A DNA stretch of 64,000 nucleotides from a virus (IMGVR_UViG_3300033146_001759:1-64000), one strand, 5' to 3'. Positions 10,617 to 63,114 are shown, counted from the stretch's first letter. Numbers and translations: made by a program. The notes: generated by a model not told the origin, from the sequence alone.

Positions 10617-10921
10617 TGTTTATGAATTATTTTTTTGTTTTTTTATATATTTAATGAAAAAAATCAAAAAATAAATCTATTTTTTATACCCTGATTTATG
10701 GCTTATAATTGACGTATTATTTTAAGATATTTATTTTTTTTTCATAAAAATAATTAACTTGAATGTAATATTCCCAAGATATTATAAAAAAAAAAATATA
10801 AATTATAAAAACTTTTATAAAAAAATAAAATATAACCTATATTCATGAGATATATACCATTTATAGATTATAGTTTTAATATATAAATTATATTTAAGAA
10901 AAAAAAAACAATGTCAAAAAT

Positions 10922-12055
10922 ATGTCAGTAATAAATTTAAAAAGTCAAACAGATTTATCAGGTTTTTATATCATATATAAAGGTTCAGTACAAAATGAAA
11001 AATCAGGGAATTTTGGAATTTCACATTTAATGGAACACCTAGTATATAAAAGTATTGATTATTTAATGGATGATTTTGATCGATATGGTATAGCAAACAA
11101 CGCATATACATCAGACACAGAAATCGTTTTTTATATAACAGGGTTAGATGAATATATAAACAAATATAAATCTGAAATTTTAGAAAAACTATTAAAATTC
11201 CAAATAACAGAAGAACAGTTTATAAACGAAAGACAAATCGTATTACAAGAATATGATATGTATTTTGGACAACGAACTGAAAACCATTCTTTAAATTTAA
11301 ATAGAAAATTATTTAATACATATGATGCTATTGGTTATAAACAAGATTTAGAATCATTATCATATAAAGACATTAAAGATTATTTTGAATTACAATTCAC
11401 TAAACCACACACCATAATCAATGTTTCCAAACATAATGATTTTAAAACAGATATTGAATTTTCAAATGCAACATATTCCAATATCATATCATATCAAGAA
11501 ACTCCAAAACAAGAAACTATATATGAACCAATTAACTTAACACCAGGTAAAGTTAGCTTAATTAATGTCAACAAAAATGTTATAATACAAGATTTCCCAT
11601 ATATATCATTCATAACTAGAATGTTAGGACATGGACTTCAAAGTCCACTATACCAAGAAATAAGAGAGAAAAAGGGGTTAGTATATTACGTTAGATGTAG
11701 TTTAGATAGAATGAGCGACAATTCTGGAATATTACATTTTTCTAGTGAAACATCCGAAGATTTAGTTGAAGAATTTCAAAACACATTAAAAGAAATATTA
11801 GACAACCCCAAAAAATATATGACACAAGAAAGGTTTGATATTATATATGATGCCATAAAAATATCTTTAAAAACATCTAAAATAAATAGATATAGTAATG
11901 TAAATAAATACATAACACCAAAAGAATGGCAATCAGAATATATATTACCTAATTTAACATTAAATAAAATAATGGATTATTACGTTAAATATTTTAATTT
12001 TGATGATTTATATTTAAGTATTGATTCTAACGAAACATTTAATAATAAAGCATAA
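10922..12055 (+). CDS. M16 family zinc peptidase
   Basis: GISHLMEHL (HxxEH), NAYTS, ERQIVLQE, SPLYQEIREKKGLVY. Confidence 0.9.
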   Translation: MSVINLKSQTDLSGFYIIYKGSVQNEKSGNFGISHLMEHLVYKSIDYLMDDFDRYGIANNAYTSDTEIVFYITGLDEYINKYKSEILEKLLKFQITEEQFINERQIVLQEYDMYFGQRTENHSLNLNRKLFNTYDAIGYKQDLESLSYKDIKDYFELQFTKPHTIINVSKHNDFKTDIEFSNATYSNIISYQETPKQETIYEPINLTPGKVSLINVNKNVIIQDFPYISFITRMLGHGLQSPLYQEIREKKGLVYYVRCSLDRMSDNSGILHFSSETSEDLVEEFQNTLKEILDNPKKYMTQERFDIIYDAIKISLKTSKINRYSNVNKYITPKEWQSEYILPNLTLNKIMDYYVKYFNFDDLYLSIDSNETFNNKA

Positions 12056-17568: not shown

Positions 17569-17636
17569 ATAATAAATAAATATATATCGTAATGATTTTT
17601 TATTTACCTTTGTATCACATTAAACAAGTATAAAAT

Positions 17637-18878
17637 ATGAATATAAAACAACAGTGTGAACAATATTTAAAATACAAATATGAATATTACATTATTGGTG
17701 AATCTAGTATTAGTGATTATGAATTTGATGTATTTGAACAAGACTTAATTAAAACCAATGATAGTTTAGCACTACAAGTAACAAATCTTGTTGATTTCCC
17801 ATCATTAAAAACAATAAAAAGTATTGGTTTAAATATTGAAAATATAGCACCCACATATAAAGTAAAACGTGATGATGCTGATTATAAACACTCAACATTG
17901 ATGCTTTCAACACAAAAAATTCAAGTTAACGATGAAGACAATTTACCATTACACGAAGTTAATCTATTTTTAAATAGAACACAATCACCTTATTATGAAT
18001 GTGGACCAAAATATGATGGAAATGGATTAGATGTTTTATATATAAATGGTAAATTAGAAAAAATATTAACTCGTGGGGATAAATTATATGGTAAAGATAA
18101 AACTAAAAAACTTAGCTTATTAGTACCATCAACAATCCCAATGAAAGGTAATATTGAAGTTAGAGGGGAAGTTGTAGTAAATGAAAAATATTGGAAAGAA
18201 TTTTTCTCAAGAAATGACCCAAATAATCCTGATAATGCAAGAAATTGGGTTGCTGGAATAATATCCAAAGAAAATTATTATATTGAGGAATTAAATGAAT
18301 TAGTTTTTGTTGCGTTTTCTATGGTTGAAGTTAAAAACGAAAAACCAAACTATATAGAAAATGAAATAATAAAATTAAAGGAAAATGGATTCAACAAAAA
18401 CCATGATCCATTCATGATTAAAATCAAAGGAATTAATGATTTTAAAGATATGTATTTTAAATATAAAAAATATAGAGATGATTGTGAATTTATGTTAGAT
18501 GGTATTGTTATTAAATACCCAGAACATATAAGAAATAGTCTTGGTGTAAACAATAAGTATCCTAAATGGTCTGTTGCTATAAAATTCATCCCAGATGTAG
18601 TTAAGACAATGATTAAAGAGATTATTTGGTCATTGGGTAAAGATGGTCATTTAACCCCAATCGCTATCTTAGAGCCAGTAGAATTACTTGGTACAATGGT
18701 TAGAAAAGCAAGTTTAGCAAACTTAGGTAATATTCAAAGACGTGGTGCTTATCCTGGTGCAATAGTTTCCCTTAAAAAAAGTGGAGAAATCATACCAATG
18801 ATTATAGATGTTTTAGTTAAAAGTCCAAAACACGATATATACGAAAAAGAATTAAATGATTATTTATTAACACATTAA
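17637..18878 (+). CDS. ligA: NAD+-dependent DNA ligase, short form
   Basis: YY...ISDYEFD, KYDG, TRGD, EVRGE, DGIVIK, VAIKF, TPIA.LEPV, SGEIIP. Confidence 0.9.
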   Translation: MNIKQQCEQYLKYKYEYYIIGESSISDYEFDVFEQDLIKTNDSLALQVTNLVDFPSLKTIKSIGLNIENIAPTYKVKRDDADYKHSTLMLSTQKIQVNDEDNLPLHEVNLFLNRTQSPYYECGPKYDGNGLDVLYINGKLEKILTRGDKLYGKDKTKKLSLLVPSTIPMKGNIEVRGEVVVNEKYWKEFFSRNDPNNPDNARNWVAGIISKENYYIEELNELVFVAFSMVEVKNEKPNYIENEIIKLKENGFNKNHDPFMIKIKGINDFKDMYFKYKKYRDDCEFMLDGIVIKYPEHIRNSLGVNNKYPKWSVAIKFIPDVVKTMIKEIIWSLGKDGHLTPIAILEPVELLGTMVRKASLANLGNIQRRGAYPGAIVSLKKSGEIIPMIIDVLVKSPKHDIYEKELNDYLLTH

Positions 18879-50651: not shown

Positions 50652-51416
50652 CTATTTCTGAGCTTCTAAAATATTATTATAATATGTATCAAACCCTTCT
50701 AATTGTTCAGTAATAGATTTAACATCACCCCCAATACCGATAACATTATCCATTATTCCAAATTTAACTGCTTCATCTGAATTTAACCAATTATCTCGTT
50801 TAGACACTTCTAATATTTCATGTACTGATTTATTTGTATATTTTCCTAACCTTTTAAATAAAAGATAATTCGCTTTTTCTGCTTCTTTTTGTGTAATTCT
50901 AACATCTTGAATATTACCCTGAGCACCATATGATACTTGGTGTGTCATAACCTTAGAATTAATCAAACCTCTACGTTTTCCTTTCTCACCAGCACCAAGT
51001 AATACTGATCCCATAGATGCACACATACCTAAATTGATTGTACTTATTGGTGGTTCAACAAATTCCATAGTATCAATTATACCTAATCCAGCATCAACAC
51101 TACCACCAGGAGTATTTAAATACATTTTTATTTCTAGTGATGTATCAACTGATTCCAAAAACAACAATTGTGCTTGAATTATATCAGACATTTGAGAATT
51201 AACTACACCAGATAACCACAAAATTCTATCTTTCATCAATCTATCAAAAACTGACATAGTAATCATATTCATCTCTCTTTCCTCAACAATATGTGGAGTA
51301 TAAAGACCACTCACAGAATTTTGTTGTTTAATTACTTGGTCAACCACAAGACCATTATAACCAAGATGTTTAACAGCATAATCTCTAAATTCTTTTTCAT
51401 TATTCATTTTATTCAT
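50652..51416 (-). CDS. clpP: Clp protease proteolytic subunit
   Basis: DRILWL, AQLLFLE, LNTPGG, CASMG, MTHQ, RDNWL. Confidence 0.93.
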   Translation of the reverse strand: MNKMNNEKEFRDYAVKHLGYNGLVVDQVIKQQNSVSGLYTPHIVEEREMNMITMSVFDRLMKDRILWLSGVVNSQMSDIIQAQLLFLESVDTSLEIKMYLNTPGGSVDAGLGIIDTMEFVEPPISTINLGMCASMGSVLLGAGEKGKRRGLINSKVMTHQVSYGAQGNIQDVRITQKEAEKANYLLFKRLGKYTNKSVHEILEVSKRDNWLNSDEAVKFGIMDNVIGIGGDVKSITEQLEGFDTYYNNILEAQK

Positions 51417-51697
51417 ATTTTAAAATATTTAATTTTTATTTATTTTATATCTAATTTTTAATTTAGTTTATATTTTTTATAAACATCTTCAGTTATTTCA
51501 TTATTTTTATATAACTCATCTATCATATCACTTTTACCACTATTATATTGATTATATAAAAAATATATAATAACTATTGTTAATATTAAAATACTTATAA
51601 GTATTGCATATGGATTCATATTTCTTTTTTTTTTAATTATTAATTTATCTTGTATTTATCTTGTATGTGAGATATTTAATTCAGTAAAAACCATATT

Positions 51698-55464: not shown

Positions 55465-55583
55465 TTTTTAAATATTCTCAATATTGTTTTTATTTTTTTT
55501 ATCCGTTCCTTATTTAAATCAACCCATATTACATCTAATTTATATGGCTTTTTTTTTATATACATATATTCATTTTTCATCAT
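55461..55583 (-). CDS. 40-aa peptide ending RIKKIKTIL (not in ORF track)
   Basis: MMKNEYMYIKKKPYKLDVIWVDLNKERIKKIKTILRIFKK*, overlapping both neighbours by ATGA. Confidence 0.55.
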   Translation of the reverse strand: MMKNEYMYIKKKPYKLDVIWVDLNKERIKKIKTILRIFKK

Positions 55584-55936
55584 ATATTAAATTCAGTTAT
55601 TATTTTATTATCTAAAAAATCATCATATTCTATTTTATATTTCATTTTTAATTTTTCTATTATATCTTCTTCTAAATAATCTATAAAATAATCACCATGC
55701 TTATCTTTAATATACCAATTAGCACCATTATCTATTAAAAAAAATAAATCACCTTTATTTGCTAAATTATATTTAATCTTTCTCGCTAACCACGTTATTA
55801 CTGGCTCATTATTACTATTCATACTATTAATATCTGCACCATTTCTGATAGCCATTCTAACTTGCTGTATATTATTATTAAACATACCAACTTGTAAATC
55901 GTTATCTTTATTGAATTTTTTCTGTTCTTTAATCAT
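55580..55936 (-). CDS. ankyrin-like protein with FNI end
   Basis: AIRNGADIN, LIDNGANW; ...TEFNI*; late promoter upstream. Confidence 0.65.
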   Translation of the reverse strand: MIKEQKKFNKDNDLQVGMFNNNIQQVRMAIRNGADINSMNSNNEPVITWLARKIKYNLANKGDLFFLIDNGANWYIKDKHGDYFIDYLEEDIIEKLKMKYKIEYDDFLDNKIITEFNI

Positions 55937-55954
55937 ACATTATATATAAAAAAT

Positions 55955-56207
55955 AAATCACATGAACGTAATCAGGATTCTGTTTTATGTTATCATTTAA
56001 CTAAGATTTTTAAATCTTCTCATAATATTGATATTACTATCAACGAGTGCCACAACCCAACTATTATAAAATTGCTCACCTTCTAAGTTTGTTTGTGTTG
56101 CATCCTTGGAAGTACTAATGATATAATATCTCCTTCCGTAAGCAAAGATGTCCTGAATTTCCTCAACACCAATAAAATAGTGCAGCGATAACTCTTCTTT
56201 GTAATTT
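55955..56207 (-). ncRNA. rnpB: RNase P RNA, compact form
   Basis: GAGGAAAUUCAGGAC and ACAGAAUCCUGAUUAC (P4 pair), GUUAUCG/UGAUAAC (P2), GCACUA/UGGUGU (P3), UGCAACACAAA, GAGCAA, P1 pairing of the ends. Confidence 0.85.
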
Positions 56208-56523
56208 ACTTTTTAACTTTATTAACTATTTCAAATATTGGTAATTCCATTAAATTATCCTTTAATGTATCATTATGTATTGATATAATATGCTCATGAT
56301 ATAATTTATCTTTTGACATAAATTCATCAACATGTACTATTTTTGATCCTATAACCAATTTACCATCATCGGAATAAACTACTCTATAATCATCACCTTT
56401 TTTTATAGCATCCATTACAGTTTTATATGAAAAAATAAATTCTATTTCTTTATATTCTGGACTAAATATCAATTTAAAATTTTTATTGTCTTTTGTTTTT
56501 GCTATAATATAATATGTTACCAT
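56206..56523 (-). CDS. hypothetical protein
   Basis: 105-aa ORF directly upstream of rnpB. Confidence 0.55.
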   Translation of the reverse strand: MVTYYIIAKTKDNKNFKLIFSPEYKEIEFIFSYKTVMDAIKKGDDYRVVYSDDGKLVIGSKIVHVDEFMSKDKLYHEHIISIHNDTLKDNLMELPIFEIVNKVKK

Positions 56524-56566: not shown

Positions 56567-56983
56567 TTATTTTTTATTCACTATAACTTTTGAGTATCTT
56601 ATAATCACACCATTCAACATATATCCTTTTTTAAGTATCCTCACAACGACATTTTCTGAATAATTATTATCCCAAATTGTTGATATTGCTTCATGATATT
56701 CTGGATCAAATATTTCACCAATTTCACCAAATTCTTCAACATTATGTTTTTTTAAAAATAATATAAATTTATTATAAATATATTTTAAACCACCATCATT
56801 AATAGATTGTTGTTTTAACGACAATTCAAAATCATCAACAATTTCTAAAATTTCTGTTATAAAAACTTCTTCAACCGTTTTCACAAAAAGTGTTTTTTCT
56901 TTATCTATTCTTTTTTTATAATTTTCAAAATCAGAATATAATCTCAGATATTGATCAGATAAATTTTTATATTTTTTTTCCAT
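56567..56983 (-). CDS. grpE: nucleotide exchange factor GrpE (start likely 56983)
   Basis: YLRLYSDFENYKKR, VDDFE, FDPEYHEAI, KGY.L...IIR..KV.V. Confidence 0.92.
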   Translation of the reverse strand: MEKKYKNLSDQYLRLYSDFENYKKRIDKEKTLFVKTVEEVFITEILEIVDDFELSLKQQSINDGGLKYIYNKFILFLKKHNVEEFGEIGEIFDPEYHEAISTIWDNNYSENVVVRILKKGYMLNGVIIRYSKVIVNKK

Positions 56984-57284
56984 TATTGTTATTATTTTTA
57001 AATCTTTTTGGGTGTGCATCTTTCATCACATTAAAGATAAACCCTTCTGCAACAATTTCACCATATTCACATATCGGTTCTGCCATACTTTCACAACCAA
57101 GAAACACATTTACACCATTTATTTTTATATCTATCCCTAATAATCCTATTTTTTTTTCATTAGTAGGAGATAATCTATACATATCATCTCCAATTATTTC
57201 TATTTTAGTACCACCAAAACAACGCTCCATTATATTTATTGCACCATATATAATTGGTGATATTTCTTTATTTTTTTCTTTCAT
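56967..57284 (-). CDS. hypothetical protein
   Basis: Operonic ORF between polymerase and grpE. Confidence 0.5.
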   Translation of the reverse strand: MKEKNKEISPIIYGAINIMERCFGGTKIEIIGDDMYRLSPTNEKKIGLLGIDIKINGVNVFLGCESMAEPICEYGEIVAEGFIFNVMKDAHPKRFKNNNNNGKKI

Positions 57285-57287
57285 ATT

Positions 57288-58745
57288 TTAATAATCTATT
57301 ATTGATGATTCTAATTCTTCTATTTCTTTTTCAGTATGAAAAATCTCTACGTTTTTTTCTTTCATTATACCTTTATAAACTTTTCTTTCAGCATATATAT
57401 CTGTTAATACTTGATTTACTACACCAATTTCATTTCTAAAAACAGCACCAGAAACCGTAACTATATCTGTTTCATTTATCTCTACTTGTTGACCATTAAA
57501 CAACGAATATTTTTTTCCTTTTATTTTTTGTCCTTTATATGAATCTGCACTAATATTAAATTGTCTCATTGTTGTAGGGTATAATGATGCAAAATCATAA
57601 CACGCAGTCCACGTAGCCATACCCCTAATTGGTTCTTTTACCCAACCACCCTTTACTGCAGATGCTTCTGATATATCGTTTTTTACTAATTTAATATTTT
57701 TTAAATCAATAAGTTTTTTTCTTAAAATACCCTCCGTAACATTTAATGTAGATAATGCTTTATTAACAGTAGTTCTACTTAAAGTAGCAATACCATACAT
57801 AATATCAGCTAACTTAGTTTTTTCATGTATTAACTGAACCAATATACTATCAATAGCATTATAGTATATAAATTTCTTAAAGTCTTGACTATATAATGTT
57901 TTCAAATTACCATCATAATCAACTTTCTTCAACTTCAATACTGTTTCTGCAACAAAATTTAATGCATTTGATTCTTTAATCTTTATAGATTGATCCCATT
58001 TTTCAAAAATTTCCATATAATCAAATAATAATCTATGTTTTGGTAATTCTGCAAAATTCCGTGGATCTCTTTCATTTAATGGTTCTAATTTATTTGTGAA
58101 AGATGATACATCTGGATTTATTCCAATTTTTCTTGCCCTTGCAACTAAATATACCCAATCAAAATGAATAAAATTCCAACCAGTTAATACTGGCATTTTT
58201 GGGACCATATTAATGAAAAAATTCTTCAACATTTCAAATTCAGACTTATATTGGATATATTTAAAATCCCATTGTGTATTAAACTTATCACCATAATCAT
58301 TATTAATATCATTACCTATTGCTTTTACTTCTTTTTTTGTTAATGGGTCAGTACCAATAACTAATACTTTATCTTTAACAACAATTGAAATAGATATTAC
58401 TCTTGTTCTTGCTAATTCTGGTTGTAATTTTTCTGTGGAAATCTCAGTTTCAATATCAATAAAAAATATATTTGGTTCATTATAATCAAATATTTCTCCT
58501 TGTATATCTTCTGGTAAACTTTCTAAATAATCATAAATAGAATATTTATTAGGATATTTCGTATAAATTTCTTTTGTTGGTTTGCCATCCCAAGTAACAT
58601 ATTTTTCGTGCCTTTCTGGGTCATCTAAACTTGTAGCTATAAACTTAGTTGGTGTCCAAGGAAAATATTTTAATTTTATATTTCCTCTCTTATCAAAATG
58701 TGATACTATTAAGTTATGATTTGAATATTCGTAATCTATTATCAT
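57288..58745 (-). CDS. family B DNA polymerase, N-terminal subunit (exonuclease plus motif A)
   Basis: DIET, TGWN..FD..Y, YNAID, GGWV.EP, DFASLYP; ends in the fingers, lacks K..N..YG and YGDTDS. Confidence 0.88.
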   Translation of the reverse strand: MIIDYEYSNHNLIVSHFDKRGNIKLKYFPWTPTKFIATSLDDPERHEKYVTWDGKPTKEIYTKYPNKYSIYDYLESLPEDIQGEIFDYNEPNIFFIDIETEISTEKLQPELARTRVISISIVVKDKVLVIGTDPLTKKEVKAIGNDINNDYGDKFNTQWDFKYIQYKSEFEMLKNFFINMVPKMPVLTGWNFIHFDWVYLVARARKIGINPDVSSFTNKLEPLNERDPRNFAELPKHRLLFDYMEIFEKWDQSIKIKESNALNFVAETVLKLKKVDYDGNLKTLYSQDFKKFIYYNAIDSILVQLIHEKTKLADIMYGIATLSRTTVNKALSTLNVTEGILRKKLIDLKNIKLVKNDISEASAVKGGWVKEPIRGMATWTACYDFASLYPTTMRQFNISADSYKGQKIKGKKYSLFNGQQVEINETDIVTVSGAVFRNEIGVVNQVLTDIYAERKVYKGIMKEKNVEIFHTEKEIEELESSIIDY

Positions 58746-62067: not shown

Positions 62068-63114
62068 TTATATATTAAAATCTCCAATTACAATAAATTT
62101 TTCTCCATCTTCTTTTATTTGTGGGTGAATTATATCTTTATATTTAAACATAAACTCCTTATAATTTTTTTCAATATCATTATTCCTAAAGATATATGAT
62201 TTTTGTTCATCATATTTTTTTAATTCATCAAGGAACAATCCTCCCATATTATAAATATCACCATAAAATTTATATGTAATTCTATTAAGAATATCTTCTT
62301 TATTATTTAAAATATCAACATATAAATTATCTAATTCATTTGATACATAATCATTAAATTCTTTAGATTCATCATTTGATAGTTTAATATTTTTATATGT
62401 ATTTATTTTCTCAAAATTATCTTTATTATATTTTAAAACATCACTTATATTTTTTATATCATTTGGTAATATTTCAATATCTATTTTAATATTTATATTT
62501 AATTCATCCAATTCAATCGTCATATATTTAAAGTCATTATTTATATTTTCTACATTTTTTTTTACTAAATCTCTACTAATATTATTCATTCTATTGATTA
62601 TATTAGCATAATTTTTAAACCAAGTATAAATTAACATTTCATTTAATACTAAAAAATAAATTCCTATTTTTTGTTCATTTTTATCAATATTAAATATATC
62701 TAATATCTTTACTATTTTATTTTTATTATCATCAGTTAAAAACTCAAATAATGTTTGTTGAGTTATTAGTTTTTCACCTTCTAAAATATCAAAATAGTTA
62801 TATAAAAACCATTTTTTAATTTCCAATAAATCCGCAAATATACTAGAATCACTAATAATATTAATTATATTAGGTTTTTCATATTCTACTAAAAGTTTTT
62901 CTTGATACTTAATATTATTACTTTTTATAATATCTTTCATTTTTCTATAATTAAATCTATTTTCATTTGATATTTTTTTCACATAATCATAATCAATATC
63001 CATTAATATTGATGCTTTATTCTTCAATGATAAATTACTAAATTCGGTTAATGATAACAATTCCCAATTTTTTATTGATTCTAATATAAAATTATAATAT
63101 TTCTTCATCTTCAT
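62068..63114 (-). CDS. putative internal head protein, paralog 3
   Basis: MKMKKYYNFILES...GGLF...EQKSY...GDFNI*. Confidence 0.6.
   Translation of the reverse strand: MKMKKYYNFILESIKNWELLSLTEFSNLSLKNKASILMDIDYDYVKKISNENRFNYRKMKDIIKSNNIKYQEKLLVEYEKPNIINIISDSSIFADLLEIKKWFLYNYFDILEGEKLITQQTLFEFLTDDNKNKIVKILDIFNIDKNEQKIGIYFLVLNEMLIYTWFKNYANIINRMNNISRDLVKKNVENINNDFKYMTIELDELNINIKIDIEILPNDIKNISDVLKYNKDNFEKINTYKNIKLSNDESKEFNDYVSNELDNLYVDILNNKEDILNRITYKFYGDIYNMGGLFLDELKKYDEQKSYIFRNNDIEKNYKEFMFKYKDIIHPQIKEDGEKFIVIGDFNI

Follow-up and report, generated by a model that had tools for sequence, protein, structure and literature searches.

Can a bacteriophage carry its own RNase P RNA, and could such an RNA still work once nearly all of its specificity domain is gone? 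These questions are raised by a 253-nucleotide (nt) element on the minus strand at positions 55955–56207 of a 64,000-nt stretch of viral DNA (IMGVR_UViG_3300033146_001759:1-64000, hereafter the window). An original prediction, made from the sequence alone, had read the element as a minimal phage-encoded RNase P RNA of about 250 nt. The RNA of RNase P counts as a housekeeping ribozyme universal among cells; the typical bacterial RNA has roughly 350–400 nt, and its specificity domain (S-domain) normally clamps the tRNA elbow. Judged by profile matches and covariation, the window element is a genuine and conserved phage-encoded homologue of the type-A RNA of bacterial RNase P; its S-domain is vestigial.

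Identification of the element

The predicted position, strand and length are borne out by a global match to the Rfam model RF00010 (RNaseP_bact_a), a leave-one-out profile and the layout of open reading frames (ORFs). Counted from the 5′ end to the 3′ end of helix P1, the non-coding element takes up exactly the space between ORFs 56206–56523 and 55580–55936, both on the minus strand. The covariance-model check named in the original prediction did return a match, albeit one under the gathering score: cmscan aligns positions 55954–56204 (minus strand) with model positions 1–367 at 35.1 bits; E is 3.4e-9 when 1 kb is searched and 6e-11 for the virus record of 72,957 bases, in which no other site matches. 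The best-scoring member of the RNase P clan is bacterial type A, and the archaeal-type catalytic domain (C-domain) of type T RNAs is not found. In the RF00010 alignment the conserved 5′ and 3′ strands, the J5/15 GCAA, the L15 GGGU and the uAG..AAUG linker all agree. A profile hidden Markov model built from 22 viral relatives, with the window excluded, was searched against the 64 kb at E ≤ 10 with nhmmer and finds a single site, 55960–56195 (minus strand; 122.7 bits, E = 1.7e-37). Together with the covariation described below, these matches uphold the identity of the element as a reduced RNase P RNA. A search of sequencing runs listed no RNA run that contains the stretch; the single DNA run, which shares a small part of its words with it, yielded nothing beyond brief matches of low complexity and a pair of identical contigs of 151 nt that lie outside the RNA, and is uninformative on the element.

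The phage origin stated in the original prediction is supported by genes for a T4-type major capsid protein (Gp23), a portal protein (Gp20) and a prohead protease on the same contig. By its gene content and composition, the source is a fragment of a very AT-rich, T4-like giant phage. The record is 17% complete according to IMG/VR/CheckV, which would place the genome at roughly 400 kb.

Covariation and conservation of the catalytic domain

Evidence for the structure comes from an alignment (A1) of 23 viral sequences, the window and 22 relatives, in which 81 pairs and 1462 cells were scored. Covariation in relatives, a check named in the original prediction, was found: 83.2% of the cells are paired, compared with 65.0% after shuffling (a value as high as the observed one came up in none of 500 shuffles) and 34–42% when the structure is slid by 1–3 columns, a control over which it is favoured because it was derived from the window and its relatives. 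Both sides have changed in 55 of the 81 pairs, and the covariation score is 0.393, as against 0.137 for shuffled and 0.07–0.12 for slid structures. RNAalifold, applied to A1, independently gives P1, P3, P4, P5, P7, P15, P16 and P17, and 31 of its 42 pairs change on both sides with pairing kept. Paired cells amount to 87.1% in P3, 84.8% in P16, 82.4% in P17 and 74.7% in P15; the figure for P1 is only 59.9% overall, which we attribute to poor alignment of its ragged outer ends. Compared with two close relatives, L189 and L190, the window shows at least 12 double compensatory changes, distributed over P1, P3, P5, P7, P16, P18a (three) and P18b (at least three).

The core motifs are fully conserved. 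GAGGAAA, U52–C53, G55–G56, the GCAA adenine and the GGU at nt 151–153 are invariant in 23 of 23 sequences, as are the AG..AU of J18/2 and ACAGAA-CC-G-UUA. Among the 77 columns with at least 85% conservation, the window departs from the family at two (family range 0–11). These data show that a complete catalytic domain, comprising P1–P5, the P4 and P6 pseudoknots, P15–P17 with the GGU, J18/2 and the P18 region, is under structural selection.

Secondary structure

The RNA is numbered from nt 1 at window position 56207 to nt 253 at 55955; all coordinates in this section are on the minus strand. P1, P2 and P3 are present, as the original prediction had it. The 5′ strand of P1 (56195–56207, nt 1–13) pairs with its 3′ strand (55955–55966, nt 242–253) through 8 bp, an internal loop and 3 bp (nt 1–8/246–253 and 11–13/242–244), and the inner pairs of this RNAalifold-recovered helix covary strongly (alignment columns 12–14/379–381). 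A U-rich tract follows, and the start codon of ORF 55580–55936 lies 18 nt on. P2 joins 56187–56192 and 55989–55994 (nt 16–21/214–219), with 90.5% of cells paired and double changes at six of six pairs. The P3 hairpin (56166–56183, nt 25–30/37–42) is kept in L189–L191 despite a different sequence.

The catalytic core is formed by GAGGAAA with the P4 5′ strand AAU(U)CAGGA (56151–56164, nt 44–57), a region known as conserved region CR-I, and by ACAGAA with the P4 3′ strand UCCUGAUU (55970–55983, nt 225–238). These two P4 strands are those originally proposed, and U52 is bulged. The pseudoknot has eight pairs (nt 49–51 and 53–57 with 231–238), of which three covary, and 98.4% of cells are paired; since the Rfam model treats both strands as single-stranded and leaves the P4 pairs unscored, this pairing is support independent of the RF00010 match. 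At three P4 pairs the window has A-U or U-A where the Rfam consensus has a different pair. Among the 23 A1 sequences the U-A pair beside the bulge occurs only in the window, and it is common to L189–L191.

P5 differs from the earlier proposal. The pairing CAUCUU/AAGGUG holds in 60 of 138 cells, compared with 92 of 92 for CAUC/GAUG (56147–56150 with 56101–56104, nt 58–61/104–107), all four pairs of which covary, with 100% paired. The P6 pseudoknot connects J5/7 (56138–56145, nt 63–70) with loop L17 (56072–56079, nt 129–136; GUGAGCAA); 85.3% of its cells are paired and four pairs show double changes. The GAGCAA stretch listed in the original prediction proves to be the 3′ strand of this pseudoknot. 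Between J5/7 and P5 lies the vestigial S-domain (56108–56137), in which P7 (nt 71–75/96–100; 96.5% paired, with covariation) encloses a 4-bp stub hairpin (nt 78–81/85–88, within nt 78–88) and P8–P14 are absent. The stub has an altered sequence in L189 and L190 and is retained as a hairpin in both.

The P15–P16–P17 arm (56051–56097, nt 111–157) consists of P15, CACA/UGUG (nt 111–114/154–157), P16 (nt 119–122/146–149) and P17 (nt 123–127/137–141), all three of which covary. The invariant L15 GGU (56055–56057, nt 151–153) corresponds to the motif that binds the tRNA 3′-CCA in type A RNAs. The P18 region (56003–56047) forms two hairpins, P18a (nt 161–189; pairs 161–163/187–189 and 165–170/175–180) with a GUAA tetraloop, and P18b (nt 190–205). 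The AAGAUUU/AAAUCUU hairpin, originally described as P18-like, covaries in the close relatives. By contrast, the originally proposed P15-like helix UUUAUAAUA/UAUUAUGAG is paired at 9 of 9 positions in the window and at 5 of 9 in each of L189–L191, and was abandoned; the region was reassigned to P17 and the GNRA-capped P18a. J18/2, a AGUUAAAUGA-type conserved linker, together with the P2 3′ strand occupies 55989–56002, and its AG..AAUG agrees with the Rfam consensus uAGAugAAUG.

The GNRA tetraloop of P18a (56028–56043, nt 165–180) is kept although its usual receptor, P8, is absent. It reads GUAA in the window and GCAA in L189–L191, and GNRA loops are also seen in L007, L013, L019 and L038.

Loss of the specificity domain and size range

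In the window, 36 nt replace the roughly 140 RF00010 model positions of the S-domain. The original prediction saw no space for P12–P14; P8–P14 are all missing, and the 42 nt between the two P5 strands hold P7 and the 4-bp stub only. The S-domain typical of type A, P7–P14 with the conserved J11/12 and J12/13 modules (CR-II and CR-III), is not found.

The same reduction occurs elsewhere in A1. The spacing between the P5 strands is 39–44 nt in 8 of the 23 RNAs and 55–124 nt in the others, and the length between the inner strands of P1 ranges from 182 to 275 nt (window, 234), the smallest members having about 200 nt overall. Five members have the two-hairpin P18 region; it is reduced to at most 6 nt in the other 18, and the window has the longest at 48 nt. 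Two relatives, L061:5363-5644 and L045:1090-1291, are nearly identical outside the S-domain, but one of them has about 80 nt inserted at the stub, a difference that suggests repeated, recent loss or gain of an S-domain extension. From these comparisons it appears that evolution has repeatedly removed P8–P14, and usually P18 too, with P6 kept, a pattern that mirrors deletion studies of the E. coli RNA.

Viral and cellular relatives

Relatives were sought in IMG/VR with a pattern made of both P4 strands and the gap between them, which measures 168 nt in the window. The scans gave 158 viral loci, with 21 at gaps of 121–151 nt, 24 at 152–182, 24 at 183–213, 18 at 214–244, 42 at 245–275 and 29 at 276–306. 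Among the 87 loci with gaps of 121–244 nt, nine look like chance matches, scoring below 10 bits with the family profile and having no tRNAs, and a subgroup aligns with the window end to end. The A1 profile scores 34 viral loci at 40 bits or more; 22 of these are profile seeds and score highly by construction, and the 12 non-seed loci reach 40–159 bits. The best of 99 cellular loci retrieved with the same pattern scores 37.9 bits. The window, on its viral contig, shares with the stub-type subfamily defined by A1 the J5/7 GCUUA-type strand that pairs with the L17 UGAGC, a P7 placed directly around GAG, a variable hairpin and the conserved J segment.

Its closest relatives, L189–L191, come from three metagenome contigs of 24–27% GC, retrieved with a pattern specific for the window's P4 variant, and have a mean column identity of 90%. 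In these contigs the RNA lies between phage-like ORFs, and a NusG-family gene stands directly downstream in L189 (2393–2914, minus strand) and L190 (1666–2187, minus strand), a neighbourhood unlike that of the window. Four large relatives have RF00010 matches of 55–70 bits, all under the gathering score; a complete 329 kb relative genome with terminal repeats encodes an RNase P RNA of 210 nt (69.5 bits). Among five large relatives, the capsid protein of the window has one weak match only, so members of the RNA subfamily belong to more than one phage lineage. A search for related viral loci based on the family B DNA polymerase (PolB) found none. With the window RNA and those of L016, L027, L006, L008 and L011 as queries, blastn gave no match in 50,697 GenBank phage records, a search that distant homologues would escape.

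The nearest cellular relatives (L072, L074, L095, L103, L113, L116, L122, L134 and L152; 20–38 bits) are mostly from Elusimicrobia. RNAs of this type also have an unusually short distance between the P4 strands (158–178 nt) and retain conserved S-domain sequence blocks that are absent from the phage subfamily. Each of the nearest cellular RNAs lies about 0.8–2 kb downstream of a tRNA-Met/tRNA-Val pair.

Association with tRNA genes

Viral copies are strongly associated with tRNA genes. At least one tRNA is present at 71 of the 87 viral loci with gaps of 121–244 nt and at least three at 65; 977 of the 986 tRNAs at these loci are on the strand of the ribozyme, and a co-oriented tRNA is directly adjacent at 52 loci. 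By comparison, the 99 cellular loci found with the same pattern have a tRNA in 12 cases and three or more in none, a contrast to be taken qualitatively given the different locus lengths (viral 2–15 kb, cellular up to 8 kb). At 15 of the 34 subfamily loci the distance from the P4 3′ strand to the start of a tRNA is at most 30 nt, which puts the tRNA a few nucleotides past P1. Four of the 34 have no tRNA within the fetched DNA, which is short.

Near-full-size viral copies (L192–L262) likewise occur within long arrays of co-oriented tRNAs. Three or more tRNAs occur at 26 of 42 loci with gaps of 245–275 nt and at 13 of 29 with gaps of 276–306 nt (39 of 71 in total). Other near-full-size copies, many of them with a gap of precisely 260 or 281 nt, have no tRNAs and lie at contig ends; these may be host rnpB genes at provirus borders.

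Proposed function and alternatives

We hypothesize, with a probability of roughly 70%, that the window RNA is a functional ribozyme subunit of type-A descent that uses host RnpA to mature tRNAs. The RNA would be transcribed together with the surrounding replication and chaperone genes, fold as a C-domain-only ribozyme and join host RnpA. It could then cut the 5′ leaders of pre-tRNAs by recognizing the acceptor stem and 3′ end, not the T-loop, with extra tRNA-processing capacity during infection as the outcome. In related phages, where the ribozyme is found inside long co-oriented tRNA arrays and often a few nucleotides upstream of a tRNA, it would probably be co-transcribed with its substrates and might be freed when the 5′ end of the tRNA that follows is cut. 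A role in pre-tRNA maturation is plausible given the invariant L15 GGU, the intact P4 core and the relatives embedded in tRNA arrays. Neither the Bacteroidota host implied in the original prediction nor the tmRNA maturation that it had added finds support; ARAGORN listed no tmRNA in the window or in positions 63001–72957.

The feasibility of such an enzyme is indicated by an engineered E. coli RNA. Reduced to its C-domain, the E. coli RNA still cleaves its substrates, both in the presence and in the absence of the C5 protein, at a rate about 100-fold lower, and once the S-domain is gone P18 is dispensable and a P6-like pairing is important (PMC5839562). The phage pattern, in which P6 is kept and the P18 region mostly lost, parallels that construct and so speaks for the feasibility of an active ribozyme.

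Several observations weigh against the proposal. At gathering thresholds Rfam gives no match in the whole window, the gathering score of RF00010 being 100, and the 35.1 bits fall so far below it that standard annotation overlooks the element. The single-sequence minimum free energy (MFE) z-score is unremarkable at −1.22, as would be expected for an AU-rich pseudoknotted RNA. A promoter scan at the element gave nothing above shuffles, and no consensus terminator was found there. ARAGORN detects no tRNA or tmRNA near the window copy within the 64 kb, a search limited by the roughly 83% of the genome that is missing (CheckV); the only tRNA of the 73 kb record, tRNA-Met (CAT), lies beyond the window (ARAGORN on 63001–72957; L002 5833–5908, minus strand) and has no encoded CCA. 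A 3′-CCA is encoded in only 94 of the 366 array tRNAs at the 34 subfamily loci, so a GGU–CCA contact would need prior CCA addition; the GGU is nonetheless invariant. A search for RnpA (PF00825) found no match in the 73 kb record or in five of five large relatives, one of them the complete 329 kb genome, a result that rests largely on partial genomes and proves little about the partner protein. It is because no RnpA gene was seen in the examined phage DNA that host RnpA is put forward as the partner. Finally, loss of the S-domain costs the E. coli RNA about 100-fold in rate, which makes the efficiency of the phage RNA uncertain.

Other functions were considered. An RNA that has lost the S-domain has also lost its ruler for the tRNA elbow, and the ribozyme could now act mainly on RNAs other than tRNAs, for instance host RNAs, polycistronic mRNAs of the phage or structures that resemble tRNA, or, in the window, on its own operon. 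The setting of the window copy, between protein genes with no tRNA nearby, would suit this idea, as would the subfamily loci without tRNAs (4 of 34) and the position of the RNA just upstream of a NusG gene in close relatives. We regard it as unlikely: the invariant L15 GGU and the intact core for binding the acceptor stem and leader point to tRNA-type substrates, most relatives lie inside tRNA arrays, and with short fetched loci and a genome only about 17% complete such arrays may lie elsewhere. Less probable again is a non-catalytic decoy or regulator that binds host RnpA, or competes with the host RNase P RNA, and thereby redirects or stops host tRNA maturation. An RNA that keeps the protein-binding C-domain and drops the substrate-binding S-domain, in phages where no RnpA was found, could behave in this way, and the orthopoxvirus RNase P-like RNA, described as inactive in vitro (PMC3001073), offers a precedent. 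Binding of a protein alone would nevertheless not call for strict invariance of the P4 bulged U, ACAGAA, the J5/15 GCAA and the L15 GGU, and placement within tRNA arrays argues for aiding, rather than harming, the tRNA supply.

That the element is what is left of a host rnpB once captured, now decaying and without function, is very improbable. Large deletions relative to cellular RNAs and a sub-threshold Rfam score are what such decay would leave behind, but compensatory changes uphold every helix across 23 divergent phage sequences and the close relatives, the window departs at just two of 77 conserved columns, and 8 of the 23 members have the same reduced architecture. As for the idea that the likeness arose by chance in AT-rich DNA between genes, or that the DNA is cellular through contamination or chimeric assembly, the MFE z-score and the GC content of the RNA (31%, compared with about 22% for the contig) might raise the suspicion. 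GC above the surroundings is usual for structured RNAs, however, the same RNA occurs between phage-like ORFs in three further low-GC metagenome contigs, and the phage genes on the contig, the covariation and the independent profile match (E = 1.7e-37) have already refuted this explanation.

Returning to the proposed tRNA-maturing ribozyme, the wider picture would be a large unannotated class of phage RNase P ribozymes that range from near full size to about 200 nt and typically lie in tRNA arrays, where they would be co-transcribed with their substrates and released by cleavage at neighbouring tRNAs. No natural RNase P RNA of bacterial type would then be smaller than those of the stub type, which would work with no specificity domain and supply giant phages with their own enzyme for tRNA maturation, dependent at most on the host's small protein. 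The balance tips slightly in favour of this generalization.

Comparison with known RNase P RNAs and phage ribozymes

The phage RNA resembles type A RNAs (RF00010; rnpB or M1 RNA) in P1–P5, in the P4 pseudoknot with GAGGAAA, the bulged U and ACAGAA, in the P6 pseudoknot between J5/7 and L17, in P15–P16–P17 with the L15 GGU, in the J18/2 AAUG and in the GNRA-capped P18. The P15–P16–P17 arm and the P6 pseudoknot are the features that separate type A from type B. It is unlike type A in lacking P8–P14, in its length of 253 nt and score of 35 bits, and in being phage-encoded.

Two kinds of cellular RNA have undergone comparable reductions. One is the type T RNase P RNA, reportedly described by Lai et al. 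(2010) from Pyrobaculum and further Thermoproteaceae, in which most of the S-domain is deleted and the remaining ~200 nt are catalytically active. Type T is likewise a natural RNase P RNA and acts like a C-domain-only enzyme; unlike the phage RNA, it is cellular, has an archaeal C-domain and archaeal protein partners, and is not known to have the L15 GGU arm of bacteria. Since the phage RNA clearly descends from bacterial type A, the two reductions are convergent. Among bacteria, the RNase P RNA of Mycoplasma fermentans has 276 nt. Reduced bacterial RNAs of this kind, in M. fermentans and in Candidate Phyla Radiation (CPR) genomes, have lost P12–P14 or P18 as the phage RNA has, but are the only RNase P of their cell. 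According to PMC8172020, loss of P12 was known only from M. fermentans, Thermoproteaceae and some CPR genomes, and the diverged CPR RNAs without P12–P14 and P18 were detected only with reduced Rfam thresholds; Rfam scans of megaphage genomes are said there to have detected only tRNAs and a tmRNA. The engineered E. coli RNA, a type-A C-domain without an S-domain, has the same architecture by design (PMC5839562). It is a laboratory deletion, whereas the phage RNAs occur in nature, where they are conserved and have diversified, and they may carry compensating features, for example the conserved J segment after the stub or the P18a and P18b hairpins.

Other viral RNAs offer partial parallels. Theta ribozymes (HDV-like) are also phage-encoded, lie beside phage tRNA genes and are proposed to mature tRNAs without host enzymes, according to PMC10879173; as described there, they are small and self-cleaving, acting in cis on tRNA 3′ trailers, and the phage RNA would be a trans-acting homologue for 5′ ends. 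That text assigns 5′ maturation to RNase P generally and, in the part available, does not mention a phage copy (PMC10879173). The orthopoxvirus RNase P-like RNA is virus-encoded too, but belongs to a eukaryotic virus, bears a loose resemblance and does not cleave pre-tRNA in vitro (PMC3001073); the phage RNA, in contrast, has the full conserved catalytic core with covariation. A phage-encoded RNase P RNA is not described in the open-access papers and preprints that were searched; non-coding RNA tables in huge-phage supplements could hold some.

The translation-related genes already known from giant phages include tRNAs, synthetases, ribosomal proteins and tmRNA. A virus-encoded RNase P RNA with a conserved core would lengthen this list, and would add a trans-acting ribozyme to the phage toolkit beside the theta ribozymes at tRNA 3′ ends. 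The stub-type RNAs would also be a natural experiment on the purpose of the specificity domain and the minimum size of a working RNase P, and at 190–250 nt they would be attractive for structure determination and for engineering of minimal RNase P. With scores of 35–70 bits and a threshold of 100 bits, the class is missed when viral metagenomes are annotated in the standard way; a dedicated covariance model would show how common it is.

Genomic context in the window phage

Further genes on the contig are those for an NAD-dependent ligase, GrpE, ClpP and, in its N-terminal half only, a family B polymerase. The ORFs for GrpE (56567–57019, minus strand), ClpP (50652–51419, minus strand), the NAD-dependent DNA ligase (17634–18878, plus strand) and an M16-family peptidase (10898–12055, plus strand) make up a set that includes cell-like chaperone and protease genes near the ribozyme. 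An alternative genetic code was considered and rejected, as table 11 yields dense coding. In the ORFs up- and downstream of the family B DNA polymerase ORF (57288–58745, minus strand) no polymerase match was found; the ORF itself encodes only 485 amino acids, which comprise the exonuclease domain and, of the polymerase domain, the first quarter, and the gene looks split or truncated.

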